Source: a virus
Lineage: Duplodnaviria > Caudoviricetes
DNA: 39,028 bases
Strand: one strand, 5' to 3'
Virus record (IMG/VR): IMGVR_UViG_3300037991_005359
Span: 1-39,028 of that record
Below the pieces are notes generated by a model. The model searched no databases, was not told where the DNA came from, and saw nothing but the letters and a program-made list of their open reading frames with translations. Shown one piece after another: positions 1 through 39,028 of the stretch (positions within the stretch are counted from its first letter, which is position 1; each line of letters opens with the position of its first letter). The position numbers and the translations under genes were made by a program.

Positions 1-603
1 AACTGGATCAGCGAATGGACTCAAGATGCAGCTTACGAACTTCGTAATGCAGTAGAGCAAGACGTTATCCAAAATATTGCTGGAAGTGCAACTACTAGTA
101 AAGGTGGTGCATTAAACGCAACTAATGGCGGACCTTTGTTTGCAGGTGCAACTGATGTAGATTTAGTTGATCACATGATCGACTGTGCATCTGACTTAGA
201 CGCATTGAATGTTCCTGATGATTCTCGTTTCTTCCTTCTTCCTCCTGCACTAGTAGGAATAATTAAGAAGGGCGACATGGGTGACGCTAATAAATCAGGT
301 GATTCTGTTTCTATTAAGCGTAATGGACAAGTTGGAATGATTGATCGTTTCACTATCTATCGTACTAACAACTTAACAAAAGTTACAAATGGTGGCGGAG
401 GTGGAAACACAGTATTCACTTGCTTGTTTGGACATAAAGCAGCTACTACATTTGCTACTCAATTGTTAAAGAATGAAATGATTCCTAATCCTGATGGGTT
501 TGGAATGCTTCATCGTGGACTTCAAGTTTATGGCTACAAAGTAGTTAAGCCTGAAGCTTTAGGTGCAAGCTTTATTTCATCTGATGCTGAAGCAGCATCG
601 TAA
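1..603 (+). CDS. Major capsid protein, C-terminal part (truncated at window start)
   Basis: Frame 1 is open from base 1 (NWISEWTQDAAYELRNAVEQDV...). LDALNVPDDSRFFLLPP, NGQVGMIDRFTIYRTNNL and RGLQVYGYKVVKPEAL resemble the C-terminal half of HK97-fold/P22-like coat proteins. A strong terminator follows. Confidence 0.85.
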   Translation, partial: NWISEWTQDAAYELRNAVEQDVIQNIAGSATTSKGGALNATNGGPLFAGATDVDLVDHMIDCASDLDALNVPDDSRFFLLPPALVGIIKKGDMGDANKSGDSVSIKRNGQVGMIDRFTIYRTNNLTKVTNGGGGGNTVFTCLFGHKAATTFATQLLKNEMIPNPDGFGMLHRGLQVYGYKVVKPEALGASFISSDAEAAS

Positions 604-18186: not shown

Positions 18187-20151
18187 ATGAGTACAAAAAA
18201 ACTTAGAAAAGCAAAACTTGATAAAGAAGAAAAATTATATAAAAAACAAAATGAACCTGCAAATTTAGATGTTTATAATGATTCAAAAACTATTAAACAA
18301 TATCAAAATTATGGAAGCATGGGTTTAGGTGATAGTTTAGGACAAAATAAAGATATAATGCGTGATCCATATAAATCAGGCTTTGTAAAAAGACAAGCTG
18401 CTAAAAGATATTTAGATGATTATGATGGAATATCTACTAGTAATTTAGATTCTTTTGTAAAAGGAGAAGAAGAGTTAGGAAAGCTTGATGCTAGTAGAAA
18501 ACAAATATCCTCTCCAGCTTTTAATCGTAATTCAAGAAATTTTGTTGAAAGTTCAGTAGACCAATATAAATCTTCTGGATTGCCTGAAGAACAATTTCTT
18601 TATAATCAAGAGTTACAAAGAGGTATTCCATCTGGATATAATAGAACTCAAGTACAACTTAACGCTTTAGCCGCTGCTGCTGATCAAGAAATTCCTTATC
18701 AAACAACTGATTTTAGCAACAAAGGTTTAGCATTAAAAGCACCTTTACAAAAACCAAAAGGTATGCCTGAGAGAGAAGTTATTTTTGACAGGGTAGGTTC
18801 TGCTACTGAATATCTTGCAAGCGATGATGCTCCAATTCCAGAAGGTTTAGTAGAAGTTCCTGGTTCAGGTGGTAGAGCTTTTGTTCAACCAGAAGATGCA
18901 AAAACAATAAAAAGCAGAAGAGAAGCAGATTTTTATCGAGATACTTTATTTAATGCAAGAAAAACAGGATTTGCTGAAGATGTTTTTGAGAGGATAGAAC
19001 AAACTGCAGCAGCAAGAAGGGAAGCAAAAGGTTTAGGCGATATACCTACAGAAGGTTTGTTAAGTAGTTTAACTAGAGATGCTAACTTAACTGGTACAGC
19101 TTTAACATTTGGTGGCAAACGTGCAAATGAAGCTGCTAAAACTATTCTTAATACTTTAGAAGAATCTGGTTTAAATGTTGCAGATCTTAACAATGCTGAA
19201 AAACGAACATTAATTACAATTAAATCTGGATTAGCAGATCCTATGAGTAATACTCGTAGAGAAGCGACAGAACAATTACAAGGATTAGTTTCTGGAAGTA
19301 TGTTAAGACGAGCAGATGAAGCTGCAGGTAGACTTAATGAAGATTTAGCTATAGGTGATACTGAAAGAGAGATGAAACAAAATCAACTTATAGTTCAAAA
19401 TCTTACATCTAAATTTATAGCAGGAACAGCTACACCAGAAGAAATTAAAGAATTAGGTAGAGCTATGAAAGCTACTGCTATTATTAGAGATATAGATGAT
19501 GTTGAAGCTAAAAAGAAAAAAATAACTACAGCAGCAACTTACCTTACTACTATTAGTACAACTGGACAAAGACGGATTGATTCAATTCAAAAACAATTAG
19601 AAGAAGAGACTAATGATGCTAAAAGAAATACACTTAATGAACAAATTAAACTAATTCAAGATCAAGTTACAGCAGCATCTAAAAACTTTATGAAAATTTA
19701 TGAAGGTACTAATCTTGAAGGTTTAACTGCTGATGATTTAAGAAATAATACTCCTGCACTTCAAGAAGCTTTAAATAAAATTGATGAAGAAGCAGGTTTA
19801 ACTGATACAACTTCTGATGATGAAGTTACTAAACCAGTATTATATGAATTAACTGATGATATAAAACAAGAATTAGATAACGTATATGATCTTACTAAAC
19901 CTACTATTTTAATAGCATCTCAAGCTCCTGGAGGTCAATCTAGAGAAGATAATAGAACTTTTGAACAAAGAATGTCAGATAAATTTAGAAAAGAATTTGG
20001 TTCAGACGAAGCTTATAATGCTTTCCTTAAAGATCAAAAACAAGAAATGATAGATCGTTTAACAAAAGAATCTACCCCTAAAAAAGGTATGGCACAAAAA
20101 GAAAGACACCTTAAAGCACAAAAAAGATTAGATTTTATTTTAGGAAAATAA
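18187..20151 (+). CDS. Putative internal virion/ejection protein
   Basis: 654 aa, helical and charged, directly upstream of the giant virion protein. Confidence 0.5.
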   Translation: MSTKKLRKAKLDKEEKLYKKQNEPANLDVYNDSKTIKQYQNYGSMGLGDSLGQNKDIMRDPYKSGFVKRQAAKRYLDDYDGISTSNLDSFVKGEEELGKLDASRKQISSPAFNRNSRNFVESSVDQYKSSGLPEEQFLYNQELQRGIPSGYNRTQVQLNALAAAADQEIPYQTTDFSNKGLALKAPLQKPKGMPEREVIFDRVGSATEYLASDDAPIPEGLVEVPGSGGRAFVQPEDAKTIKSRREADFYRDTLFNARKTGFAEDVFERIEQTAAARREAKGLGDIPTEGLLSSLTRDANLTGTALTFGGKRANEAAKTILNTLEESGLNVADLNNAEKRTLITIKSGLADPMSNTRREATEQLQGLVSGSMLRRADEAAGRLNEDLAIGDTEREMKQNQLIVQNLTSKFIAGTATPEEIKELGRAMKATAIIRDIDDVEAKKKKITTAATYLTTISTTGQRRIDSIQKQLEEETNDAKRNTLNEQIKLIQDQVTAASKNFMKIYEGTNLEGLTADDLRNNTPALQEALNKIDEEAGLTDTTSDDEVTKPVLYELTDDIKQELDNVYDLTKPTILIASQAPGGQSREDNRTFEQRMSDKFRKEFGSDEAYNAFLKDQKQEMIDRLTKESTPKKGMAQKERHLKAQKRLDFILGK

Positions 20152-20152: not shown

Positions 20153-23100
20153 ATGGCAATAATTAATAACGATCCAATCGGAGAAGATCGTGCTAATATA
20201 GATTATGCAGATCAAATAGCAGCTCAACTCTCCGCAATGAATTATTTTAGATCTGCTTTACTTGAAGCGGATAGAGATAAATCAAAACAATACAATACTT
20301 TCTTAGCACCAGAAGAAGAAGAAAAATATCAATCTTGGAAACGATTAGCCTCACCTATATATGGCGACATTGATGAATCAGATTATGATTTTCGTGGATT
20401 ATATCGTGAAACTTTAGGTGCAGTACCAGATAGCGTTTACAAACCTGCAACATACAGAAAACCTAACAATATAGAGTTTACTACTGATTCTATATATCAT
20501 GGTAGAGATGGCTATCAAGGTGGTACATATACTCAAGATGGTAAGTTTATGGTTGGTTCAACTACTTTTTATTCTGATGATGAACTAGAAAATTTTTATA
20601 CTAATAAAAATATAACAGTAGATAAAAGCAAAGAGTTAACTCAAACCGAAAGATTAAGACAGGCATTAAGAGATGAAGACTATGATTTTTCATATGTTAA
20701 ATCTGACATCGACGCTTATCAACAAGCTGAAAAGTTAGGTAAAAAAACTATTGGAGAAGTAATAAAAGAATCTTTTGATCCTGCTGGTGATAATGTATTT
20801 GGAAGAATAGCAGGAACTACAGTAGGTGGAGCTATAGGTGCAAGTCTAGCTGCAGGTTTATTAGGTAGTAATCCTGTAGGTTGGGCAGGAGCTTTATTAA
20901 TGGCTGGTGGTGCAGCTTTAGGTGCTACAGCTGGTGATGGTCTTGCTATATGGGGTAGCAATAAAGATGAACGTGATATTGAAGAAAAAATGTTACGCCT
21001 TCAAGCAGATGATTATGATGATCCTGCTGAAAGAGAACTTGCTGAGCAAGATGTTGCTAGTTGGTACAATGAATTAAATATTGAAAGGTACCGTGAACAA
21101 GGATGGGGTGCTAATGTTGCTGATATATTCTTAGAGTCTCTACCATATATGTCTTCTTTCTTTGTACCTGGTAAAGCTTTAGCTGTTGGAGGTCAAAAAG
21201 TATTAGATAATGTAACTGGTAAACTTGTTAATATATTTAATAGAACTACAAAAACAGGAAAACGAGCAGACCCAGGTTTTAAAGCAGCTTTAAAATCAGG
21301 AGATTTTTCTAAACTTGAACTTGATGAGTATCCTCTACAAATAACAAAAGAACAATCTAAAGAAATTTTAAGAGCAGTAAGAAAAGATACAAGTTTTGCA
21401 AAAGGAGATTCTAGAGCTAAAGCATATAGAAAAGGTATGGAAAAAGCTTATAATGATAATCTTCAAAAAGTATTAAAAAGTAAGCCAGTAAGATTAGGTA
21501 TATCAGGAGCTGGAACTCAAGTTATACAACAACCTGCAATTTTTGATGATTTAGCACAAGAAAGATTAGAATCGTTTAGCGTAGATGATAAAGGTAATTT
21601 TACTTTTGATGAAACAGGTATGTCTGATCTTGCAATTAAACAAGCTAGTGCTTATCTAGCTATATTAGTTGAAACTGTAGGATTTGAATATGCTTCTAAA
21701 TTAGTAAAAGCAACTGGCATACAAAACGCTTTAAAACCAGCAGTAGAATCTGTAGTTAATAGTAAAGCTGTCAAAGCTATAGGTAGACCTGGTATTAGAA
21801 AAGGTTTAGATAATTTCTTTAATAATAATCTTTTAGGTAAATCTTTAACAGGCAAGACAGCTTTGATGAAAGATATAGCACAAAAGGTTCAATTTGGTGG
21901 TGTATTAGAAGAAGCATCTGAAGAATATATTGAAATGGTAGCATCAGCTACTCTTGGTTTAGATAAAGAACAAAGAGAACAGCAAGGCTTTAGCTACGCT
22001 GAAAACCTTTTAGACAAAGTATTATTTCCAGTAAAGTATCCTGCTGAAGCTTCTGCTATATTAGCAGCTGTTGCTATTCTTCCTACTGCTGCTGCTGGAG
22101 TCTCTGCAGTTAGAGGGGATAAATTAAAAGAAGAGTATGAAAAAGAGTTAGGTATAATAGAAAAGCTATTAGATCTACAAAAATCAGGACAGTTTATAAC
22201 TGCTGAAGAATTAAACAAAGCTGTAGAAGATGCTGAAATATTTGCTGGTACTGTTTTTAATCAAGAAAAAAATAAAAAATGGTTTCAACGTGGATTAATA
22301 GGAAAAGTATTACAAGCTGGAAGACATAATGATATTTTAGTTGCAGATGGTTTTGGATTTAAAGATTCTTTAGACATGGTTGAGACTATTGAAAATAGAG
22401 CAACTCAACTTGTAGAAGAATCTAAAGATGTAAATGCTCCTATTTCAGAACTTGCTGCTAGAAAAAAAGCTATATCAGAAATAGTTTCTGAATCTATTGT
22501 AGTTAAACTTGCAGTTGAAGCTGAAGGTGTTACTGAAAAACAAGCTAGAAATATTTTAGAAGAACTAAGAAAAAATAATGATATTAAACCTTTTAAGATT
22601 CAAGGTGAAAAAGGACAGTTTATAACTGGAATTGGAGTAAAACAAACAGGACCAAGAAAAACTGTTGTACAAAAATTTCAAATTAGTTCTAAAAGAAGAA
22701 AAGAATTAGAAAAAGATCCTACTATTAAAAAGGTTCTTGATTCTCAAGGAATAATAACTAGAGGACAAACAGAAGCTAGTGATGCTGCTTTATCAGAAAG
22801 AACATCATTAGATACATCAGAAGTGGATAAGTTATCTACTATGATAAATAATAAGAATACTTCTCCTCAAGTTATTAAAGAGCAAAGAAACATAGCTATC
22901 AATTCTGTAAAGTCTCAATTAAACTTAACATTTGGAACAACACCAGCGACTGGAGGTAAAGGTGCAATTAGAACTTTTGATAAAAGAGTTGAAAATATTG
23001 TAGATCAATTAGCATCTGAAAAATCAGACAATCCAGATTTAAAAGTATCTATAGCTCCCGCAACTGTTGTTGAAAAAATGGATGAATTTGGTGGTAGAAA

Positions 23101-26100
23101 ATTTAAAGATAAAACAGGTGTTGCTGTAATACAAGGTACAAATTTAGATAATGAAATTATATTATCAGATTTAAGCACATTTGATCCACAAACTGATTTA
23201 ATCGGTACTGGGGCTAGAGTTGTAGAAGAAGAGGCTTTAGAAGTTAATTACAAGGCTTCTAGGGGTACAAAACTAAATACCTTTACTAATCAATTAATTG
23301 GTCTAACAAAAAATGAAGCTAAAAATATAATAAAGTCAGAAGAATCTACTGAAGAAGAAAAAATTAAAGCTAAAATTACATTAGGAGTATTAAATAATTT
23401 AAGCCCATTTGAAGCATTTATAAATCTAACTCAAGCTGCTTATGGAGATCAATCTAGATTTGTTGATCCTAATTTATCTACTGCAGTAGAATTTATTAAA
23501 AGTAATTCTAATTTATCATCCTTGCTGGATCAATCTGTATTAACATCTTTTAGTGGAAACAGATTAGCTAAATTGTCTAGCAATATGAATCCTCAATCTT
23601 TACAGCTTGCAGAGTCACTTATTCAAGAATCAACCTCTAAAGGTAGAACTGCTGTTGAAAAATTCTTAGAAACACAACCATCAAAACCATTAAAGAAAAC
23701 TAAAACAGGTAAAACATTTCCTTCTAGAAAGATTAAGAAAGCTAAACAAGAAGCAATAGGAGAAGTTAAAGGTCAAATAGTTTCTGGCAAATTATCAGAA
23801 GAACAAAAAGTATTAGCTAAGAAAGTATTAACTGTTTTAGAAAAAGAATATGATGATCCTTCTGGCATAGAAACAAAAAGAAAAGCACAAATTAGAAAAA
23901 TACATAATCAAAAAAGATTTCAAGATGTTACATATTCTGTTGTAACAGGAGAACAGTCTGATGGAGATCAGAATCTTGATCCTAAAAAAAGAAAAGAAGA
24001 AAATACAGGTAAAGATAATACTGATTTAAATTTTGTTTCTACTTATTCTGATGAGTTTTATGACGACAAAGTAAGTAATGCTATTGTTTCTGAACGTGGT
24101 TCAAGAGAAGGTAAAGCTGTTATTAAAAATGTTAGAGACTCTAAATGGTTAGATGAAGCATTAGAGTCAGAAAAAGCTTGGAATAATTTTAAATCAAAAA
24201 CTCATAGAGATTCTGTTAAAGATTTATTTAAAAGAATTGGTGAAAATTACACATACAAACAAGTAAAAAGATTTCAAAGGTTAAATAAAAGTAATCATAT
24301 TTATAGATTTTTCTCTGTTGATCTTAAAGGAAAGATACAATTTAAAAATAGCATTGATATGTTGGCAGAGTTAATTACTAACGTTAATGATAACAATAGT
24401 AACGTTGATTACAGAAAAGCATCTTATGAGCAACTTAAAAAGATTTTAACATCTGAGCCTACAGCAGAAATAGTTGATGAATTATTTTCATTATTAGAAG
24501 AATGGACTGGTATTTCTTCTGAAAAATTAAAAGATATAAATCAAACATTTGATAATAAAATAGTTTCTAGAATGTTTGAAATAGATCCTAATGATTTAAC
24601 TGATAGAAAAACATCTATAATTAAAAATGCTATTATAAAAGGTGCAGATCCAGGTCCAGGAAAAAGTAAGAATTTTGGCGATCAAAATTCTATATCTAGA
24701 TTTATAATGGAATCAGATTTAGGAAGTTTTAGAAACTCTCCAATGTTTACTAGCGTAACTGGAAAACAAAAAGCAGCATCAAGAGGTGATTCTCATATTA
24801 ATTTTGCTGCTCAAGAAATATTTAAAATGCTTGGCTTAAATGAAGAACAAATAAAAAATATTTCATATAGATATATAATGTTTTTAGATGGTACTGGAGA
24901 AGCAAAAACTAAACATACTGAACCAGAAAATTTAAGAGAAACTCAAGTTATTAAAATAATTAAAAATGTATTTAATGAATCTGCAAATCCACCAAAAGAT
25001 AGTCTATTAAGAGGTTTGCATAAAGCTGCTGGTCAAAAAGTTTATTATCATCAAATGGGTAGGTTTGGTGAAAAAGGATCAATGCCTTTTGTTCTACAAA
25101 AATATTACGGTAATAATAAAAAAGATTTATTAAAAGAAGCAAAAAGAGCTAAAGCAAGACTAGATAGTTTTAAATCTAAAGATGCAAGAGATATGTTTAT
25201 AGATCCTGTTGCTTTAGTAGAAAGTTTTAAAAATGAAACTGTATCTAAAGATGAAGAAGTAGATGCACATTATGCAATTAATACTATTAACTTAATGTAT
25301 GCAATGCATGGCGATCCTTCTGTTTATGTTATGTCTGAATCTAAAAAAGAAGGCAAAAGTAAAGATCAAATCGTTGCTTATAACTTTCTTAATCTTGTAG
25401 CTAGAGCTTCTCAAATATTAACAGATGGCGTTGCTTATAGAGGTCCTTTAAAGCTCATAAAAATAGAAGATATTCCAGGATTTTCTAATGCAGATATTGA
25501 TGCATTTGATGGGCAAGCATTGTTATCAGATAAAAAATTAAAAGAAATAGCAGAAGATTTAGTTATAGAAGACACAGATACATTAAAAGCTCATATATCT
25601 AATGTTACAAATGGCAAAAGAGTTTTAGTAAAAGTTAACTGGACAAATGTAGAACTTGCAAGAGAAACAAGTCCTATAATGGAAAAACTAGCTAAGTACA
25701 TAAATCAACATGATATTGATGGCGTAGTATTTCCTTCTGGTGCTAAATACATGGACATTGAAACAACTGATTGGCAAAATGATGAGGTCCCTAAAGTTCT
25801 TGAATTTCCAGAAGGAAATAATTTAATTGTTTCTCAAGACCTGCATCACGATAACCAGGCAACACATGAAGGTTTTATACCTAGTCAACGAGTCGCTCAC
25901 TTTGCTGCATTAAATGAAGATATATCTTTTATAATTAATGGTAGTTTAAGAACAATAAATTCTCCTGGATTAACAGCTTTTGATTTAAGAACTGAAGCAT
26001 CTGAAATTAATTTACAACAACATAAAAAGAAACCTAAAAAAGTAGAATTAGGAGCTACAGCAAATCCAGATATAATTAGAGCTAAAGCAAATGGAGAAGA

Positions 26101-29100
26101 CGTTGAGAATGATCCTAGATTTATATCTTCACTTATATCTTCAAAACTATCTGCTGTTAAAAATTTAATACGTCACTCTGGTAAACGAACTGCTCTACAA
26201 ACTCTTGGAGAAGGTGATCTTAAATTAGCTGGATATGAAGAAGTAGTAGATGCTAATGGAAATCGAATAATAAAATTAGCTAGAATAAATGCTAATATTA
26301 GAGGTGTTAGGTATCAATCTAAAGGTTTTAAATCTAAAGAAAAAGCTATTGAGCATATTAAAAATAATCCACTTTTATATGCAGATATGTTTTATGCAAA
26401 TGAAGATGGTAATCCAGACTTTGAAAATGTATTAGAACATGAAATAGATGAAATAGATGGCAAGTTTATAATTCCTGGAGAAATAGTAGAAAGAACCCGT
26501 GTACCTTCAGGAGCTTATGCATCTCATTCTTTTAATAGGGTTATGCAACCTGCTAGTAAAACTTATAAAACAGCTAACATAGCAGTTGCAAATGATTCAG
26601 TTAGAATAGGAATGGGAGAAGATCTTGATGGAGATAAAGGCTTTACGCTTGTTTTAGATAGACAGTTTACAGAAGATGGTAAAATAGAATTTTTATTTGA
26701 AATAGAAGCAGATCCTAAAACACCTGAACTTACTGCATCATCTTTAAATAACAGAGCATTAATGTTAGAGCATATGGCTTGGATCCATCCTGATTATTTT
26801 GGGCATTATAATGTAAAAGGCGATATACCTAAAGATTCATTTGATAAAGCTATTAATAGATCTGCTAATGAAAAGTTAAAAGATTTTAAATTTGGAAGTG
26901 TTAAAGGTTTAGGATTAGCATCAGAAGTTAATTATACTAGAGCTAAAGTAATTGGTACAACTGCCGTTTATAATACAATGTTTTCAGCATTATCTCTTGA
27001 TACATCTTCTGAAAAAATACTTACAACAGATAACCCTAGAAAAGCATATGAACGAGAAAAGTATTATGTAGAATCTCCTACATCTATTGATTTTACTTCA
27101 TATAAAACTATTAAACGTTTATTAGATATTGTTTTAAATATTGCATTAGATGACCACAAAGATCCTAGATTATTTTTTGCAAATATAACTCCTGAAACTG
27201 CTAGTATATTTGCCACATTAGTTATGACTAATGTTAAAAAAATGAATTTAGGTTCTGAAAATTCAACAGTAAAAAATACTAAAGCCGCTAAAAAAGTAGA
27301 AGAAATAATTAGACTATTACAAACAGCAAAAATTAAAATTGATAAAAGAACAGGTAAAAAAAGATTAGAGATAAAAGATGAAAAATTTACTAAAGAAATA
27401 ACAGATTTTACAAAAGAAGCATTTCATATAACTAGAGTTTTAAATGCCCCTTATAACACACCAAGTACTGTTGAAGAATTAATAAAATTAATACAAGCTA
27501 AATATAAAATTGATAATTCAGATATAATAAATGATTTAAATCCTTTAATTGTATTAGGTAAAAATACTATTAATGAATACGAAGAAATATATATAAATAC
27601 TCCACAGCATAAAATATTAGAACAATATCATTCTATTGGTGATGATTTAATGGCTGAATATTATGCAGGAGAACAATTAGTACCAACTTTACAAAATTTT
27701 GAAGCTCTTTCTAAAATGATAATTCTTCAATCTTTATATCAAGTGTCAGGTAATGAAGGTTTGATTACAGAAGAATATCTTGATAGCCAAACAGACATTG
27801 TTACTAAACTAATTAATAGTAAAAACAATAATAAATTTTTATCTAGATTAGAAATAAAAGAAGGAGGAGAAATATCTTTAGATGAAAGAACTTCTCAAAA
27901 AGATTTAACTCAAAAAGATTTAGAATTTTTAAGATCATCTTTTGATAGGTTAACAGATGAACAAAAAATTGCTTTAGCAGTTGTTGCTTATAAGCAATTC
28001 GGAACTAAAACTAGTGCTTGGGGAGGAAACTGGATTACATTTTTAGATTTAAAAACTTCTAAAAAAATAAATGCTAACAATAATAAAGCTGTAAAACTAT
28101 TATCTGAAACTGATTGGGTAAATAATATAGGTTTAGCTATAGAAGCAAGCTTAAAACTTGATTTAAGTACCAAAGAAGCTGAAAGTTATGTATTCTGGTT
28201 AGGTTTTGAAGAAAGAAAAGAAAGAGAAGAAGAGAAAAAGAAAACTGTTTCTTCTAGCAAACTAAGAGGCAGTAATACAGGTTCTTTACAAGACCAAGCT
28301 ACAAAACGAATTGAGGAAGTTATTCCTCCATCTGCTAAAAAACATTTAGAAAAAGAACGAGTTAAAACAAGAATAGCTACTCAATTTATAGGAGATGGTG
28401 TTGAAAACTCTTCTACCGATAAATTCAGAGAAATGTATGAAAAGCTTTATTTTGAAAAGCTTAGACAAGGAGTTGCTAATACAGGAAAATATACAGCTAA
28501 AGATATTATATATGTATCTTCTAATGGAAGAAGAAAGAATAGAGTTGATCCTGTTATTAATGGAGAGTTGCAGGGAGTATATAAGAATATAGACAAGGCA
28601 ATAAAAGCTGGTGCTACAATTGTAATGGACACTTTAGAATATTTAAAGAAAACTAAAAGTTATAATATCGGAGAAGCAGCATTAGCAAAATATTTAGAAT
28701 CAAAAGGGTATAGTAGAGTAGGAGAAACTGGCGAATGGAAACCAGGAACAAAACAAACTACACAAGAAACTGCACAAGAAAAAACAAAAACATTTACTGC
28801 ATCAGAATTAATTGCTGATCAAAAATTAAAATTAATTGCTAGCACAATGAAAGAATTAAATCCTCTTGTAAAAGAAAGAGGAACTCATAGTGCAAATGAG
28901 CCAGCAATTGCAACTGATAATAAAGGCTCTATAAATGTAACGATTAATCCAAGAACTATTTCAGCAGATTTTGTTAATAATAAAACTGACGGAATAACAT
29001 TTGATACAGCTTCTGATTACGGAAAATATTCTATCGAGAAAGCTAAATTAGAAGCTGAAGGTATGGAAGAAGCAGCTGCTAAAAAAGCAGCATTAAAAAA

Positions 29101-32100
29101 TATAAACTATAAAGATAGATCAGGAAACAAAGGTGCTACTTACTCTTTATTAAGAGCTTCTATATTAGATAGTCAATCTGATCAAATAAAAATAGCAGAA
29201 CAATTAGAGTCTGAAGGAGCTGATAGAATTGATATATATGAAGCAACAGGCTTATATAGATGGGGAGTAGATGGCAATTGGAGATATGAGATTGATTCAT
29301 CTAAAGCAAAATTAACTCTTAATGATAATTGGTTTACAAATAAATTTCTTAAAATAGGTTTAGATCCAAATAATGCAAAGATTTTATTAAGTCAAAGAAA
29401 TCCTTTACCTTTAAAAGATGTTTTAGATTATCCAGAGCTATATAAAATAATGCCAGAAATAGCTGATTTAAAAGTATCTTTTATTTCTAGTGATACATTA
29501 CCAGGATCTGAAGCGGTTGGAAGTTTTAATCGTAGAACATTTCAAGAAAAACTTATTGAATCTGAGTATGATATATTAATTGCAGTAAACAGAAGTGAAC
29601 AAGAACTTCTTGGAACATTACTACATGAAATACAGCATGGTATTCAACATTTAAGTGACACTCAAAGTGGTACAAATATTCAGAAGCAACAAAATATTCA
29701 AAAAAGAAAAACAAGAGTAAGAATAGATATGTTAGCTAATAAGTTAATAGATAAATATGGAGATGAAGATAATCGAAATGATTATTATAATACAACAGAA
29801 CTAGCTCAATTTGATATTATTGTTAATATGGGAGATAATGCTGATATTATTGGTGATTCATTATTTAAAGAATATGAACAGCAGTTAAGAGTTTATGATT
29901 CATATGGAAATAATTTATATTTAAACGAAAAAGCAAGAGAAGGATATTATTCTAATCCTGGTGAAATAGAAGCTAGAATTGCTCAGTTAAGAGTTGGCAT
30001 GAGCAAAAGACAAAAACAAAAAGAATATCCGTGGGAAACTGCTGCTACACAATTACGAGATATGGGATTGTTAAAAACAGGTATTACATTAGATGAATAC
30101 TTAGAAAGCAATAAAACTTTAGAAGATAATCGTTATGAATTAATGATGAAGCATGAAGCATCTGATGCAAGTATTTCAGTAGAAAAAGATGCTAGACTTG
30201 AATTAAAAGAACATGAAGCTTTAAATAGTTCTTTTTCTGTGGAACAAGTATCTCCACCTAAATTAATAAAAGCATTTAAAAAAGCTGGAATTAATATACC
30301 AGAACAAGGATCACGTTTACATTACAATACAATTCATAATGCATTTATGATGAAACATAGAGACACTATGATGTCTTTACCTAAGTTTCCTTCTTCCGAA
30401 CCTTATTATGAATCGTCAGCACAAAAAGCATCTGATGTAATTAAGTCTATACCTAGTGATATAAGTAGTTTACCTGGAGAAATACAGGCGTTTATATATA
30501 AAAACTACGATAAGCTTGGACCAGAAATATTACCTTCATTAAGTAGTATAGAATCTCAAAACTATTTAGAAGCAGTTGATTTAATATTTGATATTAAAAA
30601 TAAAAATGATTTGCATTATGATTTAATTGATTCATTAGTTGAATACAATGCTTATATCGAAACTATTTCTAATGTATCTGAAGATAAAGCTCCTTCTATA
30701 TTTTTACAAACAACAAGACAGAACTATGGAATTAATGAATATGAAGCTATGGAATATTTAGTTTCATCTATGGCTGATTTAGAACTAGAAGGTTTTGATT
30801 TATCTTTAAATGATATTATAGGTACTCCAGGTAGACAGTATTTAGCTGTAGAAAAAATTAAAGAATCAGAAAACTTTGAGCTTCTTGGTAAGGTTAAAAA
30901 AGCTATACGTTTAGTTAATGGTGTTCCTACAAAATTTGGATTAAACAACGGGACTATAGAGCAAGTTAAACAACCAACTGAAATATCATATTCATTAGCT
31001 TACTTTCCAAAGTTATTAGATACAGCAAGTACAATGATGCCAGCTGATCGTAAATATTCTACACAAGAAATGAGAGATGCTTTGTTGTTTGGAACAAGAC
31101 AAAGCAAAGAAATTATTAGACTGGGTAGAATGTTTGCTAGAAAGTTACTTCGTGATACAGGATCTGAAGTAGCTATAGTAGATGGTAAAAAAATAAAAAG
31201 AACTGCAGAAAGTGATCGAAGAGGCAAACAATTAAGAGAAGCACTTTCTATATTTTTAGAACATTTTGATCCTAAAAATCCTGATAATGATAGTTGGAGA
31301 GATGTTCCAGTAATAGAAAAAGACAAAGCAATAGCTGCATTAGAAACAATGGGACAAGATGAAACTTTCCAAGAAATTGCTGCTAAAGAATTTAATACTG
31401 TAGGGGAAATATTTGATTCATGGACTTTCTGGACATATAAAAATGCTCCACATTTATTAAATGTTACCAATCCTCTTAAACTATATTCAGAATTAAATGA
31501 TATATTAGAATCTCAATATAACAATTTAACAAATACAAGTTCATACATTGGAGAACTATGGTTTGCTAAAAGATCTAATTATGTACCTCACTTTTATGAA
31601 AGACAGGCTCAGAAATATGAATCAAAAAATCAACGTGAAAGAGCTAAACAAGAACAAGGAAGAAAATATAATACATATAATGATGCTTGGAATGAAGCAG
31701 GTTTAATTCCTGAGACATTAGATTTTGGAGATTTAATAAACAAATACTCTTTTGAGACAGCCTCAGTTGCAAGAAATAGACTTTCTGTAAGTGCAATGGC
31801 TCAAGTATCTGATGAGGATATGTTACCTATGATGCTTGTAGAAGGCATTGAAACTATGGGTGTTTTAACTAATGAAGCTGCTCATGTAATAGCTAATAGA
31901 TTAGAAAAAGGAATGTCTTTCTTAAAACCTGACTTTAAATTTAAAACTCCTAGAAATATAAGTGGCTTTGAAAGATTGTCTTTAATGACTAAAGAAATAA
32001 ATCCAGCAGAGCTAGGATATGAAGTTATTGATACACAATATAAAAGTCTTAAAACAGTTTGGGTTAAGAAAGGTGAACCTAAACAATTAATGAATCATAT

Positions 32101-33868
32101 TTTTGCGGACCAAAAAGAATTTTCACATCCATTTGCTGAAAAAGCTTTTCAATCTATGTTGGCAATTAACCATACAGCTAAAGCTTTTTCAATTGGATTA
32201 TCTCTCTTCCATCCATTTGCATTAATAGAATCTCTTATAGCTATTGATGGTCTTCAAGGTCTAGATATGAAAAATAGATACCCTGTAAATCATTTCTTTG
32301 ACCCATTCAGAACATTTAAAAAATTAAAAGAAGAGTATAATAAAACAATTGGCAAACCAGACTACGCTACTGAATGGGTTAATGCTGGACTTAATTTTGA
32401 TTTAGGTAAATCCGCTGATATTGATTACGCACAAGTTAATGAAGGTTTATTAAATCTTGGTAAAAGAATGGAACGAAGTAGTGTACTTCCATTTGTAGGT
32501 TTAGGAAAAGGATTTAAAGGTATTGCAAAATTAAAATGGGGTGCTGATAGATTATTGTGGGAAGTAATGTTACCTGCAATGAAAATGTATTCTGCAAATA
32601 GATTATTTGCAGTTGAATTTGCAAGACAAGAAAAATTAACAGGAACTGGAACTGTAAATGTACAAAAGTTAAGAGAAGATATTTCTGCTTATGTAAATGA
32701 TGCTTTTGGTGGTCAAGAGTGGGAACAATATTTATGGGCTAATCCTCGTACTAGAAAATGGCTACATTTATTTATGTTCGCTCCTGACTGGACATTATCT
32801 GCATTAAATATATCTGGTGTTACTCATATATCTCCAATACAAAAAGCATTAGGAAGTCCAACTAGTGAGTTACACGCAAGAAATAGACTTACTAGATACT
32901 GGGGTGCATTTGCTGCTATTGTTTTATTAGGTATTCCTAATTTATTCCAAGCTATTATATATGGAGTTGCTAAAGCTACTGGTGATGATGATGATGAGTT
33001 AGCTTGGAATACATTTGGTAATGAAGTTGGTCATAGATTGCAGGTAGATATTACTCCAATTACTGATGCGTTAGGACAAAAATATGGCAAAACTAGACAA
33101 AGAAGAATCTATTTAGCATGGGGTAAGCAAGCATATGAGGTATTTGGCTCAAAAGGGTGGCTTAGAGACCCTGTAGGAACTGCGACAGGTAAATCATCGA
33201 TTGCAGTTAAAACTGTCTTAGAACAAGGATTTGGGATAGTTAAGCCTGGTTGGAATGTAGCATGGGCTGATCATGGTTTTCTTGAATCTTTGATGGGAGT
33301 AGATGGAAACTTCTGGGATGGTAGAGTATCAGCTATTGTTAAAAAGTTTGTTCCTTTATCTTTAATGCCAGTTATAGATGGTATGGCTGATCCATTTAAA
33401 GCTAAGCCTACGGCTTTCTTTGCTCCTACTAAATTAGGCATGAACTCATATACTGCTACTAGAGAAATTGGTTCTGTAATGAGAATATATGCAGAAGGTG
33501 GTATGAAAGCTAATTTCAAAGGTATTGTTAATAAAGCTAAGTTAGAGGATTTAGTTTCTGAGATAGTAGATGCTGCTGAAAAAAATGGATATGATCCTAA
33601 AACAATATTCTCACAAGGTGTATCTTCTGCTAGATCTTTTTACTATGCAAAATTCTTTAATGCTATGGAAAAGAATGATGAAAGTAAAATGATTGAGATG
33701 GCTGGATACCTACAAAGACTAGAAGCATCTAGAAAACAATTTGCTCAATCAGTAGAAAGAAGACTTGACACACAAGGTAAAAAATTCGATGGTGAAGCTA
33801 GAGTCAAGTTTAATAAAGCTTGGTTTGGTGCATTCAAAAAGGCTGCACAAACAAATAAAAGGAGCTAA
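20153..33868 (+). CDS. Giant polyvalent virion protein with a two-barrel RNA polymerase, an LPD23-like domain and a zincin metallopeptidase domain
   Basis: 4571 aa. RNAP-like motifs: DAFDGQ (D at 25508), RVLVK (K at 25631), FPSGAK (K at 25745), RTRVP (R at 26498), GEDLDGDK (26615-26638). Other motifs: TGLYRWGVDGNWRYEID (~29247), LLHEIQHGIQH (HEIQH at 29624-29638), GEIEAR, and a Gly-zipper hydrophobic hairpin at ~20810-20950. Confidence 0.75.
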   Translation: MAIINNDPIGEDRANIDYADQIAAQLSAMNYFRSALLEADRDKSKQYNTFLAPEEEEKYQSWKRLASPIYGDIDESDYDFRGLYRETLGAVPDSVYKPATYRKPNNIEFTTDSIYHGRDGYQGGTYTQDGKFMVGSTTFYSDDELENFYTNKNITVDKSKELTQTERLRQALRDEDYDFSYVKSDIDAYQQAEKLGKKTIGEVIKESFDPAGDNVFGRIAGTTVGGAIGASLAAGLLGSNPVGWAGALLMAGGAALGATAGDGLAIWGSNKDERDIEEKMLRLQADDYDDPAERELAEQDVASWYNELNIERYREQGWGANVADIFLESLPYMSSFFVPGKALAVGGQKVLDNVTGKLVNIFNRTTKTGKRADPGFKAALKSGDFSKLELDEYPLQITKEQSKEILRAVRKDTSFAKGDSRAKAYRKGMEKAYNDNLQKVLKSKPVRLGISGAGTQVIQQPAIFDDLAQERLESFSVDDKGNFTFDETGMSDLAIKQASAYLAILVETVGFEYASKLVKATGIQNALKPAVESVVNSKAVKAIGRPGIRKGLDNFFNNNLLGKSLTGKTALMKDIAQKVQFGGVLEEASEEYIEMVASATLGLDKEQREQQGFSYAENLLDKVLFPVKYPAEASAILAAVAILPTAAAGVSAVRGDKLKEEYEKELGIIEKLLDLQKSGQFITAEELNKAVEDAEIFAGTVFNQEKNKKWFQRGLIGKVLQAGRHNDILVADGFGFKDSLDMVETIENRATQLVEESKDVNAPISELAARKKAISEIVSESIVVKLAVEAEGVTEKQARNILEELRKNNDIKPFKIQGEKGQFITGIGVKQTGPRKTVVQKFQISSKRRKELEKDPTIKKVLDSQGIITRGQTEASDAALSERTSLDTSEVDKLSTMINNKNTSPQVIKEQRNIAINSVKSQLNLTFGTTPATGGKGAIRTFDKRVENIVDQLASEKSDNPDLKVSIAPATVVEKMDEFGGRKFKDKTGVAVIQGTNLDNEIILSDLSTFDPQTDLIGTGARVVEEEALEVNYKASRGTKLNTFTNQLIGLTKNEAKNIIKSEESTEEEKIKAKITLGVLNNLSPFEAFINLTQAAYGDQSRFVDPNLSTAVEFIKSNSNLSSLLDQSVLTSFSGNRLAKLSSNMNPQSLQLAESLIQESTSKGRTAVEKFLETQPSKPLKKTKTGKTFPSRKIKKAKQEAIGEVKGQIVSGKLSEEQKVLAKKVLTVLEKEYDDPSGIETKRKAQIRKIHNQKRFQDVTYSVVTGEQSDGDQNLDPKKRKEENTGKDNTDLNFVSTYSDEFYDDKVSNAIVSERGSREGKAVIKNVRDSKWLDEALESEKAWNNFKSKTHRDSVKDLFKRIGENYTYKQVKRFQRLNKSNHIYRFFSVDLKGKIQFKNSIDMLAELITNVNDNNSNVDYRKASYEQLKKILTSEPTAEIVDELFSLLEEWTGISSEKLKDINQTFDNKIVSRMFEIDPNDLTDRKTSIIKNAIIKGADPGPGKSKNFGDQNSISRFIMESDLGSFRNSPMFTSVTGKQKAASRGDSHINFAAQEIFKMLGLNEEQIKNISYRYIMFLDGTGEAKTKHTEPENLRETQVIKIIKNVFNESANPPKDSLLRGLHKAAGQKVYYHQMGRFGEKGSMPFVLQKYYGNNKKDLLKEAKRAKARLDSFKSKDARDMFIDPVALVESFKNETVSKDEEVDAHYAINTINLMYAMHGDPSVYVMSESKKEGKSKDQIVAYNFLNLVARASQILTDGVAYRGPLKLIKIEDIPGFSNADIDAFDGQALLSDKKLKEIAEDLVIEDTDTLKAHISNVTNGKRVLVKVNWTNVELARETSPIMEKLAKYINQHDIDGVVFPSGAKYMDIETTDWQNDEVPKVLEFPEGNNLIVSQDLHHDNQATHEGFIPSQRVAHFAALNEDISFIINGSLRTINSPGLTAFDLRTEASEINLQQHKKKPKKVELGATANPDIIRAKANGEDVENDPRFISSLISSKLSAVKNLIRHSGKRTALQTLGEGDLKLAGYEEVVDANGNRIIKLARINANIRGVRYQSKGFKSKEKAIEHIKNNPLLYADMFYANEDGNPDFENVLEHEIDEIDGKFIIPGEIVERTRVPSGAYASHSFNRVMQPASKTYKTANIAVANDSVRIGMGEDLDGDKGFTLVLDRQFTEDGKIEFLFEIEADPKTPELTASSLNNRALMLEHMAWIHPDYFGHYNVKGDIPKDSFDKAINRSANEKLKDFKFGSVKGLGLASEVNYTRAKVIGTTAVYNTMFSALSLDTSSEKILTTDNPRKAYEREKYYVESPTSIDFTSYKTIKRLLDIVLNIALDDHKDPRLFFANITPETASIFATLVMTNVKKMNLGSENSTVKNTKAAKKVEEIIRLLQTAKIKIDKRTGKKRLEIKDEKFTKEITDFTKEAFHITRVLNAPYNTPSTVEELIKLIQAKYKIDNSDIINDLNPLIVLGKNTINEYEEIYINTPQHKILEQYHSIGDDLMAEYYAGEQLVPTLQNFEALSKMIILQSLYQVSGNEGLITEEYLDSQTDIVTKLINSKNNNKFLSRLEIKEGGEISLDERTSQKDLTQKDLEFLRSSFDRLTDEQKIALAVVAYKQFGTKTSAWGGNWITFLDLKTSKKINANNNKAVKLLSETDWVNNIGLAIEASLKLDLSTKEAESYVFWLGFEERKEREEEKKKTVSSSKLRGSNTGSLQDQATKRIEEVIPPSAKKHLEKERVKTRIATQFIGDGVENSSTDKFREMYEKLYFEKLRQGVANTGKYTAKDIIYVSSNGRRKNRVDPVINGELQGVYKNIDKAIKAGATIVMDTLEYLKKTKSYNIGEAALAKYLESKGYSRVGETGEWKPGTKQTTQETAQEKTKTFTASELIADQKLKLIASTMKELNPLVKERGTHSANEPAIATDNKGSINVTINPRTISADFVNNKTDGITFDTASDYGKYSIEKAKLEAEGMEEAAAKKAALKNINYKDRSGNKGATYSLLRASILDSQSDQIKIAEQLESEGADRIDIYEATGLYRWGVDGNWRYEIDSSKAKLTLNDNWFTNKFLKIGLDPNNAKILLSQRNPLPLKDVLDYPELYKIMPEIADLKVSFISSDTLPGSEAVGSFNRRTFQEKLIESEYDILIAVNRSEQELLGTLLHEIQHGIQHLSDTQSGTNIQKQQNIQKRKTRVRIDMLANKLIDKYGDEDNRNDYYNTTELAQFDIIVNMGDNADIIGDSLFKEYEQQLRVYDSYGNNLYLNEKAREGYYSNPGEIEARIAQLRVGMSKRQKQKEYPWETAATQLRDMGLLKTGITLDEYLESNKTLEDNRYELMMKHEASDASISVEKDARLELKEHEALNSSFSVEQVSPPKLIKAFKKAGINIPEQGSRLHYNTIHNAFMMKHRDTMMSLPKFPSSEPYYESSAQKASDVIKSIPSDISSLPGEIQAFIYKNYDKLGPEILPSLSSIESQNYLEAVDLIFDIKNKNDLHYDLIDSLVEYNAYIETISNVSEDKAPSIFLQTTRQNYGINEYEAMEYLVSSMADLELEGFDLSLNDIIGTPGRQYLAVEKIKESENFELLGKVKKAIRLVNGVPTKFGLNNGTIEQVKQPTEISYSLAYFPKLLDTASTMMPADRKYSTQEMRDALLFGTRQSKEIIRLGRMFARKLLRDTGSEVAIVDGKKIKRTAESDRRGKQLREALSIFLEHFDPKNPDNDSWRDVPVIEKDKAIAALETMGQDETFQEIAAKEFNTVGEIFDSWTFWTYKNAPHLLNVTNPLKLYSELNDILESQYNNLTNTSSYIGELWFAKRSNYVPHFYERQAQKYESKNQRERAKQEQGRKYNTYNDAWNEAGLIPETLDFGDLINKYSFETASVARNRLSVSAMAQVSDEDMLPMMLVEGIETMGVLTNEAAHVIANRLEKGMSFLKPDFKFKTPRNISGFERLSLMTKEINPAELGYEVIDTQYKSLKTVWVKKGEPKQLMNHIFADQKEFSHPFAEKAFQSMLAINHTAKAFSIGLSLFHPFALIESLIAIDGLQGLDMKNRYPVNHFFDPFRTFKKLKEEYNKTIGKPDYATEWVNAGLNFDLGKSADIDYAQVNEGLLNLGKRMERSSVLPFVGLGKGFKGIAKLKWGADRLLWEVMLPAMKMYSANRLFAVEFARQEKLTGTGTVNVQKLREDISAYVNDAFGGQEWEQYLWANPRTRKWLHLFMFAPDWTLSALNISGVTHISPIQKALGSPTSELHARNRLTRYWGAFAAIVLLGIPNLFQAIIYGVAKATGDDDDELAWNTFGNEVGHRLQVDITPITDALGQKYGKTRQRRIYLAWGKQAYEVFGSKGWLRDPVGTATGKSSIAVKTVLEQGFGIVKPGWNVAWADHGFLESLMGVDGNFWDGRVSAIVKKFVPLSLMPVIDGMADPFKAKPTAFFAPTKLGMNSYTATREIGSVMRIYAEGGMKANFKGIVNKAKLEDLVSEIVDAAEKNGYDPKTIFSQGVSSARSFYYAKFFNAMEKNDESKMIEMAGYLQRLEASRKQFAQSVERRLDTQGKKFDGEARVKFNKAWFGAFKKAAQTNKRS

Positions 33869-34855: not shown

Positions 34856-35337
34856 TGAAACATATTGAGCCTCATAGTAAATTTGGTGCAAATATTAGAA
34901 AAGTTATTAATATGTGCGTCTGTTGCCAAGATCAGTATCAAGCTGGTATGGTTCCTTTAGGCTCTGCTAACTTTAAATATATATGTCCTGATTGCAATTT
35001 TGTTACCTTTGGATATGAACCAGATAGAAATGAAGATACAGGAAATATACATTGTCCAGATTGTAAATCAGAAAATGCTGCATGGATAATGAAAGAACTT
35101 ATTGAAGGAGAATTAGTCAAAGGCGGCTTTGGTATTTGTCCTAAATGTACTGGTAAATTAAGAAGTGATAGAATGGCTCTTATTGAAGTACTTGATGGTA
35201 CAGAAACTAGAACAGGCAAAATTTATTTTGTAAAAACTCCTCCATTCCTACAAGAATATTTCGATCAAGGTGAACGAATTGTTAATATAGAGAAATCGTC
35301 ATGCGAAAAAATTGGGTTGGGAAAGAAGTCAAAGTAA
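34855..35337 (+). CDS. Zinc-finger protein with four CxxC motifs
   Basis: CVCC, CPDC, CPDC, CPKC; TAATG coupling. Confidence 0.7.
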   Translation: MKHIEPHSKFGANIRKVINMCVCCQDQYQAGMVPLGSANFKYICPDCNFVTFGYEPDRNEDTGNIHCPDCKSENAAWIMKELIEGELVKGGFGICPKCTGKLRSDRMALIEVLDGTETRTGKIYFVKTPPFLQEYFDQGERIVNIEKSSCEKIGLGKKSK

Positions 35338-36432: not shown

Positions 36433-36475
36433 GAAAGGAGAATATAACTTTTTTTAAACGACATAGTTGATAACT

Positions 36476-37115: not shown

Positions 37116-37298
37116 TTAAACGAAATCTTTGTATTTTTTTATTATAGTTTCAGCTTTATATCTTTTATCTACTATAATTCCATTAGATTCAAAGTAACTA
37201 ATTAATTCTTTCTTACTCATATTTTCTAATATTACATTATCAGTAGATTCTTTGTCATCTATAAAAAATTTTTTTATTAAATAAATTAATCTATTCAT
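37116..37298 (-). CDS. Hypothetical protein with a HeH-like motif
   Basis: LENMSKKELISYFESNGIIVDKRYKAETII; overlaps the upstream gene's end. Confidence 0.6.
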   Translation of the reverse strand: MNRLIYLIKKFFIDDKESTDNVILENMSKKELISYFESNGIIVDKRYKAETIIKKYKDFV

Positions 37299-37677
37299 CT
37301 CGTTCCTTATATTTTAACTGTTTATTTTCTATATAGAAGTCTCCTATTCTAGCCTTCCAAATCATAGCTTTGCCGCCTCTAACCTTTTTTACTTTACGCC
37401 AGGACCATAACTCTAATGGTGCGTGTTCCAACCATTTCATTACAATCTCTTCTAAATCCATTATTTTATTAATATGACCAGACCAGTCTTGTCCTGTAGA
37501 TTGTATAGCTATGATTCCATCTTTAGAATCAATAGCTATTATATCTATAAACCCAAATAGATCTTGTCTTATGCCAAATTTACCTCCGTATTGTTGAAAC
37601 TTTTCAACAATGCCACATATTCTGCCTTGATTTCTCATTGCTTTTAATGTTCTTTGTGTCGGTGATATACCAGCCAT
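37291..37677 (-). CDS. PD-(D/E)xK nuclease, putative Holliday junction resolvase
   Basis: SPTQRTLKAMR..G....IVEK...RQDLFGFIDIIAI...IAIQST, in a replication context. Confidence 0.7.
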   Translation of the reverse strand: MAGISPTQRTLKAMRNQGRICGIVEKFQQYGGKFGIRQDLFGFIDIIAIDSKDGIIAIQSTGQDWSGHINKIMDLEEIVMKWLEHAPLELWSWRKVKKVRGGKAMIWKARIGDFYIENKQLKYKERDE

Positions 37678-37964
37678 TATTCAATCCTTTGGTTGCAAGC
37701 ATAACATCTGTATACTTTGCCTTTTTCATTGTCAACATGATTAAGTGTTCTTTTATCTTGGGCAAAATCAAAGTGTTCTTCAACAGCTTCTTTTATTTGC
37801 TCGACAATATCTGGTCTTTTAAAAATTAATATTGTCATTACTTTATCTAAAACATGAGCCTCCCATTCAGGAGCTGGAGATAAACTTTTCTTACCAACCA
37901 TGTCTGTAAATCTAGAACACATACCTTCATAAACAATTTTATTTGCTTTTGATTTATTTTTCAT
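37677..37964 (-). CDS. Hypothetical protein
   Basis: 95 aa, translationally coupled on both sides, C-terminal CYAC. Confidence 0.6.
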   Translation of the reverse strand: MKNKSKANKIVYEGMCSRFTDMVGKKSLSPAPEWEAHVLDKVMTILIFKRPDIVEQIKEAVEEHFDFAQDKRTLNHVDNEKGKVYRCYACNQRIE

Positions 37965-38278
37965 TTTTTATAATGAGTATGTATCTTGGGAAAGATAGAT
38001 CTTTTTTTTGCTAACTTCATTGGATAACCAATTTTTAATAAGCATTTATATACACTATTTTCTGATATAAAATCATCATGGAAATCAGGCAAATAAAGCC
38101 TACTCATCTTTCTAAGATAAGTAGACTTCTTGCCAAAGACCTGGTAAAAATCCCAAAATAAAATACAAGATACTTTATATTTAAGTATTTCATCTTCTAT
38201 TTTTTCTACTTCATTCTCCCATTTTTTATCAGTATATTTATTTAATCTTAGATACTTTTCTTTTTTAGAAAGGGTCAT
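37961..38278 (-). CDS. Hypothetical protein
   Basis: 105 aa, overlaps the helicase stop region. Confidence 0.6.
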   Translation of the reverse strand: MTLSKKEKYLRLNKYTDKKWENEVEKIEDEILKYKVSCILFWDFYQVFGKKSTYLRKMSRLYLPDFHDDFISENSVYKCLLKIGYPMKLAKKRSIFPKIHTHYKK

Positions 38279-39028
38279 TTTTCTTATACCTCTTTTGTTT
38301 AAACGATTGATATTCAGCCATCGAAAGAAATTTATTATGAGGCTTATTAAACATCATATGTATTTCTCCCGTTGACCCTCCTCTGTTAGCAGCAACTCTA
38401 ACTGTACATTGTTCTACATTTGGATTAATCCAAGATGGTTTAGGTTCAACAGCTATTGTTGGAGGACCTATAAACATAATGATATATGCATCTTGCTCAA
38501 TAGCACCAGAGTCTTTTAAATCATGCATCTCTGGCATTGGAGCTAATATAGATCCGTCTTTACCTTTAAATGGTCTGCTAATTTGTGACAAAAGTATTAC
38601 AGCTACTCCTGTTTCTTTAGCTGCAATTCGTATTTGATTAGTCATATACTGTATTTCATACGCTCTATTCTGAAATGACATTCCAGGTGTCGAGCTAATA
38701 ATTTGTAGATAATCTACTATAGCAAATTTAATATCTTTATCCGTTGAGTATTCTCTTATTTTAGAACATATAGATTCTACAGTTTGAGCTGGAGAGTCTT
38801 CTATATACAATGGACATTTTGATATTATCTCTGGTCCATTAGATATAAATTTATCTATTTGTTCTTCAGATAAATTACCTAGCTTTAGATCTTTATTATC
38901 TATTTCAGATACATCTGATCCTGCTTTTTCTAGTAATTCTTCTTTGTCCATCTCAAGTGAAAAAATAACAGTAGGTATTCTTTCTACAACAGTAGAAAAG
39001 ATAGCTTCATTTAGAGCTAATGTTGATT
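38265..39028 (-). CDS. dnaB: Replicative SF4 DnaB-like helicase, C-terminal domain (truncated at window end)
   Basis: The frame is open to the window edge: STLALNE (end of Walker A), FSLEM, AIVDYLQII (Walker B), LSQISR, DLKDSGAIEQDA, VAANRGGSTG. Confidence 0.92.
   Translation of the reverse strand, partial: STLALNEAIFSTVVERIPTVIFSLEMDKEELLEKAGSDVSEIDNKDLKLGNLSEEQIDKFISNGPEIISKCPLYIEDSPAQTVESICSKIREYSTDKDIKFAIVDYLQIISSTPGMSFQNRAYEIQYMTNQIRIAAKETGVAVILLSQISRPFKGKDGSILAPMPEMHDLKDSGAIEQDAYIIMFIGPPTIAVEPKPSWINPNVEQCTVRVAANRGGSTGEIHMMFNKPHNKFLSMAEYQSFKQKRYKKNDPF

Follow-up and report, generated by a model that had tools for sequence, protein, structure and literature searches.

A predicted gp66-type two-barrel RNA polymerase within a giant cysteine-free protein of a phage whose head genes are not crAss-like

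The virus record IMGVR_UViG_3300037991_005359 (Caudoviricetes), a linear sequence of 39,028 bases estimated by CheckV to be 71% complete and referred to here as the window, encodes a single protein of 4,571 amino acids (aa). With high confidence, on the basis of sequence profiles and a predicted model, aa ~1600-2700 of this protein correspond to a single-chain two-barrel RNA polymerase (RNAP) homologous to gp66 of the crAss-type phage phi14:2. The giant protein is likely an internal-virion (ejection) cargo bearing this RNAP module, and our combined analyses suggest that the enzyme is probably carried in the virion for early transcription. The features of the module are as follows.

20153..33868, + strand: giant Cys-free protein, 4,571 aa (open reading frame, ORF; full-length homologues of 4.5-5.3 thousand aa)
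24950..27292, + strand: core of a single-chain, two-barrel RNAP of gp66 type, covered by the model at aa 1600-2380 (model, Foldseek, VIA and profile)
25448..25840, + strand: predicted beta-like double-psi beta-barrel, DPBB-B, ~aa 1766-1896, with D1786, K1812, K1827 and K1865 (model strands; putative limits)
26177..26656, + strand: predicted beta'-like barrel, DPBB-A, ~aa 2009-2168, with R2116-x-P2118 (match to designed DPBB proteins)
26621..26635, + strand: predicted catalytic loop D2157-L-D-G-D2161 (aligns to gp66 1361-DFDID-1365)
26900..27160, + strand: predicted bridge helix (~aa 2250-2283) and trigger-loop region (~aa 2314-2336) (model helices)
27293..28252, + strand: stretch continuing the RNAP module, conserved up to ~aa 2700, possibly the clamp region (profile of 6 close homologues)

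A previous sequence-only reading of the window had named six RNAP motifs, and the ORF translation of 20153-33868 recovers all of them in frame, in the order and at the positions claimed: ARASQILTDG starts at aa 1750, DAFDGQALL at aa 1783 (D1786), RVLVK at aa 1823 (K1827), VVFPSGAK at aa 1858 (K1865), RTRVP at aa 2114 (R2116) and GEDLDGDKG at aa 2155 (D2157-D2161). The distance from R2116 to D2157 is 41 aa, within the 35-45 aa cited in that reading for RxP ahead of DxDxD, and the only other DxDxD of the protein lies at aa 174. Positions 24787-28154 are covered by a contig of sequencing run X3, possibly the run from which the window came, with 1 differing letter and 0 gaps, and the relatives of the giant protein are likewise single ORFs. 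The best-matching sequencing runs are labelled marine metagenome, and no RNA run was found among those listed as matching the window.

A word-based search with aa 1600-2300 retrieved 4 further proteins of 4,537-5,268 aa (32-50% identity), and a profile of those proteins gave 60 matches at E<=0.001, mostly giant proteins, among 1.84 billion representatives searched. An early search for homologues of 1,492-4,260 aa had found none, a null result that constitutes weak evidence because the later profile search yielded many. RxP and the three Asp of DxDxD are invariant in 45/45 full-domain regions, with K1827 and K1865 present in 44/45. In a joint alignment of 42 family rows and 12 crAss-type RNAPs, from which P0010, P0025 and P0034 were dropped (large insertions), residues R1751, K1812, K1827, K1865, Q1912, R2116, P2118, D2157, D2159 and D2161 are invariant in all 54 rows, and position 1786 is D in 36/42 family rows, N in the remaining 6, and D in 12/12 crAss-type enzymes. 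The DxDxD and RxP motifs are hence kept among homologues, and the catalytic Asp, RxP and three Lys are invariant even though the proteins are just 14-32% identical to the 4,571-aa protein.

The profile of a 36-row alignment (A2), searched against 177,635 PDB sequences, matched one RNAP, phi14:2 gp66 (E 3.5e-20), as well as 12/12 crAss-type RNAPs fetched from GenBank (E 5e-28 to 2e-4). Other resources were less informative: PHROGs and NCBIfam gave no name for the giant protein, Pfam detected an LPD23 domain alone, phrog_1276 was matched over 40 aa (E 1e-4), and the ESM Atlas provided only a sub-threshold lead (0.76) to RNA-dependent RNA polymerases. The sole match of family member P0020 to GenBank phages was through its accessory C-terminal domain. 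No relative was found among 185,579 prokaryote genomes, and therefore neither a prophage nor a host was obtained.

A single-sequence model of aa 1501-2400 had a predicted local distance difference test score (pLDDT) of 37 and no usable fold; the alignment-based model of aa 1600-2380 reached pLDDT 88 and a predicted template modelling score (pTM) of 0.85. Foldseek placed gp66 (6VR4) at the top (E 2.3e-20, TM 0.55), with the RNA interference (RNAi) polymerases QDE-1 and RDR2 in second place (E 4e-8 to 1e-4) and the P23-45/P74-26 enzymes and cellular RNAPs after them; the top 22 listed matches (E<=0.001) are gp66, QDE-1 and RDR2. VIA-align gave Z 18.6 for gp66 (660 aligned residues, root-mean-square deviation, rmsd, 5.6), 17.9 for RDR2 and 17.7 for QDE-1, each over ~400 residues, and 9.2 for gp96 of P23-45, with the matches covering both barrels of QDE-1 and gp66. 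Model residues 412-569 also matched DPBB proteins of artificial design, with 81 residues aligned at Z 9.2 and rmsd 2.0. In BFVD, an unnamed entry of 29% identity came first and proteins of crAss-like phages came next. At a core identity of 12-15%, D1786/K1812/K1865 align to gp66 D962/K1012/K1065, R2116/P2118 to R1322/P1324, and N2329/D2333/K2336 to N1608/D1612/K1615. According to the accessible text on gp66, these last residues lie within its trigger loop (1598-1636), and Asp-to-Ala mutants of its DFDID loop are inactive (10.1101/2020.03.07.982082). Taken together, the core is a predicted complete two-barrel RNAP of gp66 type, as both barrels are predicted with gp66 as top match, and the two-barrel assignment of the sequence-only reading, with the residues that it named, is borne out by the profile, the model and the 54-row conservation. 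The extension profile matches members of both family groups described below.

Comparison with known systems places the enzyme closest to gp66, with which it shares a single chain, both barrels, the connector, bridge helix and trigger loop, the same invariant residues, and a gene located beside tail/cargo genes and opposite the early genes; in some crAss phages the RNAP is also part of one giant fusion with a zincin, as stated in the accessible text (10.1101/2020.03.07.982082). It differs from gp66 in its DLDGD loop with the canonical Gly, the gp66 loop having Ile at that position and adopting an inactive conformation in the crystal, in that no match was found to the N-terminal/cleft-blocking part of gp66 or to gp65/gp67, and in its separate tree branch and phage of ~54 kb with a P22-coat-type head. 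QDE-1 and RDR2 (2J7N, 7W82) have the same two-barrel core (Z 17-18 over ~400 residues) and a Gly-type loop, but they gave no sequence-level match in the PDB profile search, and the context here is a phage cargo. In phage P23-45 the tape measure holds a DFDGD RNAP: this virion protein, gp96 (8H2M), has ~5,000 aa and combines the DxDGD RNAP with a metallopeptidase and membrane segments, although it is a weaker structural match to our model (Z 9.2, 338 aligned) and is described as a clamp-less fusion to the tape-measure protein of a long-tailed phage (accessible part of 10.1101/2022.12.01.518664). The virion RNAP (vRNAP) of podovirus N4 and the polyvalent proteins resemble the present case as giant delivered proteins combining RNAP, metallopeptidase and LPD domains, and among polyvalent proteins only N4-like RNAPs are named in the accessible text (PMC5512222); the N4 enzyme is, however, a T7-type polymerase of unrelated fold, whereas the core studied here is two-barrel by Foldseek and VIA.

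An unrooted maximum-likelihood tree (54 rows, 641 columns) separated the 12 known crAss-type enzymes on their own side of a branch (100/100) that excludes the 4,571-aa protein. The remaining proteins form group A, 28 proteins with the C-terminal domain of the 4,571-aa protein (85/81, not starred), and group B, 14 proteins without it (91/93); sampling is biased, since groups A and B come from a profile seeded with the 4,571-aa protein and the crAss set from gp66. As the tree has no outgroup, no direction of transfer is claimed. The proposal of a separate lineage of virion RNAP phages thus stands for the phage and for the tree branch but not for the enzyme type, whose homology to gp66, the closest relative with a solved structure, can be detected; because both profile and model match gp66 best, we regard it as a gp66-type RNAP rather than an unrelated lineage. 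The loop letters, which had been taken as a sign of lineage, do not serve as such: DLDGD, DFDAD (G007) and DFDID (G009) all occur among phages that share a capsid family, and DLDGD versus DFDID was rejected as a marker. The G2160 position is Gly in 33/42 family rows and Ile/Val/Ala in 9/42. All crAss-like RNAPs are said, in the accessible text of 10.1101/2020.03.07.982082, to have Ile/Val at loop position 4; this is not strict, as 1/12 crAss-type enzymes has Gly there. The RNAP loop of ProJPt-Bp1 (L034), classified as a crassvirus, reads DNDGD and is an exception to the stated rule.

Outside the RNAP module, the giant protein displays the following features.

20801..20947, + strand: Gly/Ala-rich hydrophobic stretch, aa 217-265, putative membrane-inserting segment (visible in the sequence)
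29171..29314, + strand: LPD23 large-polyvalent-protein domain, aa 3007-3054 (Pfam PF18838, E 3e-11, 43.4 bits, cut-off 27)
29624..29638, + strand: HEIQH zincin-like motif, aa 3158-3162, accessory and not family-wide (motif search)
31520..33832, + strand: conserved C-terminal domain, ~aa 3790-4560 (common to 28 other fetched proteins)

The stretch matching aa 217-265 passes the hydropathy cut-off in P0002, P0003 and P0005 and fails it in the 4,571-aa protein. HExxH occurs in 4/5 close proteins, being absent from P0004, and the closest relative, P0002, is the sole match to the LPD23-HExxH region among the fetched hits; the HEIQH region also gave weak matches to F116-like Pseudomonas phage proteins, and other family members bear other extras, such as a helicase or a phosphatase. 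LPD domains with a zincin-like metallopeptidase in a giant protein by late genes characterize polyvalent delivered proteins, according to the accessible text of PMC5512222, and at the sequence level the combination of LPD23, HEIQH and varied extras is the pattern of such proteins.

The C-terminal domain had no match in PDB or GenBank phages and was found in 26 IMG/VR loci: 6 with the RNAP in the DNA covered, 3 cut short before the RNAP position and 17 without it, most of these last being weak partial matches in 1,000-1,800-aa proteins. Locus L051 belongs to a 100% complete genome of 52.6 kb (G010) in which a Cys-free protein of 2,622 aa (L051:4439-12304) bears the whole domain, with no RNAP match and no phrog_267 match in the genome. 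Because the C-terminal domain thus exists in a complete phage that lacks the RNAP, the module looks optional, and G010 constitutes a natural RNAP-less comparison. Cysteine is absent from the 4,571-aa protein and from the 654-aa protein encoded upstream, and 12-14 Cys occur in the two glycosyltransferases of the window; among fetched proteins >3,000 aa, 26/40 have no Cys and 32/40 have at most one. For N4 vRNAP, a lack of Cys is regarded as a mark of an ejected protein.

The phage context of the giant gene was assessed from the following features of the window and from its close relatives, contigs of 46-54 kb with P22-coat-type capsid and BcepC6B/pelagiphage-like terminase genes.

1..603, + strand: major capsid protein, 3' part, phrog_267/P22-coat-like (phrog_267 E 1.8e-29; 66% identity to the G002/G003 capsid)
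18187..20151, + strand: 654-aa Cys-free protein, candidate second ejection protein (directly upstream of the giant gene; 0 Cys)
37116..39026, - strand: end of the early/replication module (DnaB and small genes), likely the target of the RNAP (DnaB_C E 8.9e-46)

Relative G002 (53.6 kb, 98% complete) has terminase, portal, scaffold-like gene and capsid in that order ahead of the giant gene, opposed by an early module on the other strand. Its 504-aa terminase (phrog_2) is nearest to those of pelagiphage EXVC031P, BcepC6B and MEP301 (38-41%), its portal has 762 aa (phrog_332/1216), and its 330-aa capsid (phrog_267) is nearest to RHph_TM phages and HTVC115P; none of 30 listed terminase matches carries a crAss-like label. 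The phrog_267-type capsid family is also present in G003, G007 and G009, and was not found in G008 (69% complete). Crassvirales are defined by crAss-type major capsid, terminase and portal (accessible text of PMC7886860), and neither the window capsid nor G002 is of this type. The 29 G002 ORFs scanned gave no match to a DNA polymerase, a tape measure or a further RNAP family, and no IHF or gene 74/75 families were found in general scans of window and G002 ORFs, crAss-specific profiles not having been run. Because close relatives have a P22-coat-type capsid and a BcepC6B/pelagiphage-like terminase, the phage is not a crassvirus, in agreement with the impression of the sequence-only reading; from its gene content, it is likely short-tailed. 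The early module is complete in relatives, comprising an ATPase, a vWA/peptidase-like gene, an exonuclease, ERF and DnaB. The 654-aa protein had no family match in Pfam or PHROGs, and a 657-683-aa protein without detectable similarity to it occupies the same place in L003 and L004.

Based on these elements, the giant protein would be made late, as its gene ends the structural block, and loaded as cargo together with the 654-aa protein into the head of a short-tailed phage; its ejection into the host would precede that of the DNA. It would pass through the short tail partly unfolded, and its N- and C-terminal parts may help form a conduit or membrane anchor. The RNAP would then refold, bind Mg2+ via D2157/D2159/D2161 and transcribe the early module, perhaps pulling in DNA in the process, with late genes left to the host RNAP; the HEIQH zincin, dispensable in some relatives, may act on a host target or cleave the giant chain itself. 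The word polyprotein, used in the sequence-only reading, presupposes such cleavage, which is a putative step here. The absence of Cys, the late-block gene position and the homology to gp66 support the virion role. For gp66, packaging in the virion and transcription of early genes on the opposite strand are documented (10.1101/2020.03.07.982082), and the cargo ejection of crAss001 offers a second analogy for packing and ejection (accessible part of PMC10172136).

Several points weigh against this interpretation. No RNAP was found by sequence from the 4,571-aa protein alone or from 5 rows in PDB, Pfam, PHROGs, NCBIfam or GenBank phages, so that the link to gp66 consists of a profile and a predicted model with rmsd 5.6 over 660 residues; the VIA Z values of RDR2 and QDE-1 are <1 below that of gp66; aa 900-1620 display no profile similarity to the N-terminal part of gp66 with its cleft-blocking domain; the early module of the window lacks its 5' end, the record being 71% complete; and the tail type is read from gene content alone. 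We therefore weighed other explanations. The enzyme could act inside the infected cell, as a non-virion RNAP for middle or late genes, and non-virion two-barrel RNAPs do exist, such as P23-45 gp64 (accessible text of 10.1101/2022.12.01.518664); this appears unlikely, given the gene position at the end of the structural block, the lack of Cys, a nearest relative that is a virion enzyme, and the fusion to LPD23 and to a C-terminal domain that giant proteins with neither RNAP nor Cys also possess. It is slightly less likely still that an ejected RNAP mainly makes primers or pulls DNA in, rather than producing mRNA, an idea consistent with the preference of gp66 for single-stranded DNA in vitro and with G002 having DnaB and no primase family match among the 29 ORFs scanned; against it, host DnaG can prime, G010 does without the module, and gp66 makes early mRNA in vivo (both gp66 properties from the accessible text of 10.1101/2020.03.07.982082).

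Nothing speaks directly for an inactive relic with a structural role, which the low identity to gp66 would fit and which we consider very improbable in view of the invariance of the three Asp, RxP and three Lys across such divergent proteins. Least probable of all is a very divergent crassvirus with nothing new. In its favour are the gp66-like RNAP, the giant RNAP-zincin fusions described from crAss-like phages (10.1101/2020.03.07.982082) and a sister RNAP group in G006, a phage whose head is crAss-related; nevertheless, a genome of ~54 kb versus 88-103 kb in the complete crAss-type records listed speaks against it, and the 330-aa phrog_267 capsid and the pelagiphage/BcepC6B-type best terminase matches, with none labelled crAss-like among the 30 listed, largely refute it. 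G006, the sole group B genome examined (80.5 kb, complete), encodes a protein 52% identical to P0019, a capsid of 502 aa and a terminase; the matches listed for the terminase are crAss-like, with 23-25% identity. This genome (L026/L038-L040, with terminal repeats) has crAss-related head and tail genes, a group B RNAP protein of 4,611+ aa and a primase-helicase, and is possibly an undescribed branch near Crassvirales. As the module is homologous to an RNAP that crAss-like gut phages inject into their hosts, and the head genes of the window and its close relatives are not crAss-like, the enzyme is likely particle-carried, and transfer between phages of unrelated type is likely to have occurred.

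Other genes and elements were observed around these features. After the giant gene (33872-36149, + strand) lie a metallophosphoesterase, a Zn-finger protein and a DNA methyltransferase-like gene, the first two kept at that place in close relatives, and at 36474-36503, where late and early blocks converge after the last + gene, a hairpin followed by a T run resembles a terminator. The structural block contains a PEP-CTERM sorting-signal protein (5375-5935, + strand; TIGR02595, 19.2 bits, cut-off 16), conserved in G002/G003 (L009:7806-8345, - strand), which may hint at a host with exosortase. Among the tail genes (13639-17470, + strand), two glycosyltransferases, one of them sulfotransferase-fused, are conserved in G002/G003 and may modify virion proteins. 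A 1,531-aa Thr/Ser-rich protein with internal repeats (6588-11183, + strand) has a G002 homologue of only 539 aa, so its repeat region varies in length. Upstream of G002 early-strand genes, an intergenic repeat with core CTTyTAAACrTwATC (L010:2892, 2928-2965, 3927-3964 and 6515-6552) constitutes a candidate promoter for the virion RNAP; one copy occurs in G003 (L012:19584) and none was found in stretches of G001, G004 and G005, and a shuffle test of the repeat is circular because the pattern was derived from its own copies.

The enzyme type, giant RNAP-zincin fusions in crAss phages and the DFDGD RNAP of the P23-45 tape measure are already known. We found no description in the literature of a small phage that has a P22-coat-type head and encodes a gp66-type RNAP as part of an LPD23 protein, subscription papers and bioRxiv supplements, which might list such a family, being outside our scope. 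As a tentative and rather speculative proposal, the gp66/QDE-1-type RNAP would be a swappable ejection-protein cassette, carried by undescribed and widespread 45-55 kb P22-coat-type podoviruses in one 3,300-5,300-aa chain acting as conduit, anchor and transcription motor, with relatives that have the same C-terminal domain and lack the cassette, and with a sister branch in crAss-related heads; the Gly-loop might then represent the ancestral, ready-to-work state, and approximate the phage ancestor of eukaryotic RNAi polymerases better than gp66 does. The GenBank phages matching gp66 are all crAss-type or unclassified gut phages (best 60 of 147), and virion RNAPs of this type have been treated as a crassvirus trait; here, one is predicted in a different phage chassis. 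The enzyme is invisible to Pfam, PHROGs and NCBIfam, and therefore such phages go unannotated. Furthermore, the natural DxDGD and DxDID versions within one capsid family make the idea of gp66 self-inhibition directly testable, and the family offers new outgroups to studies of how RNAi polymerases arose.

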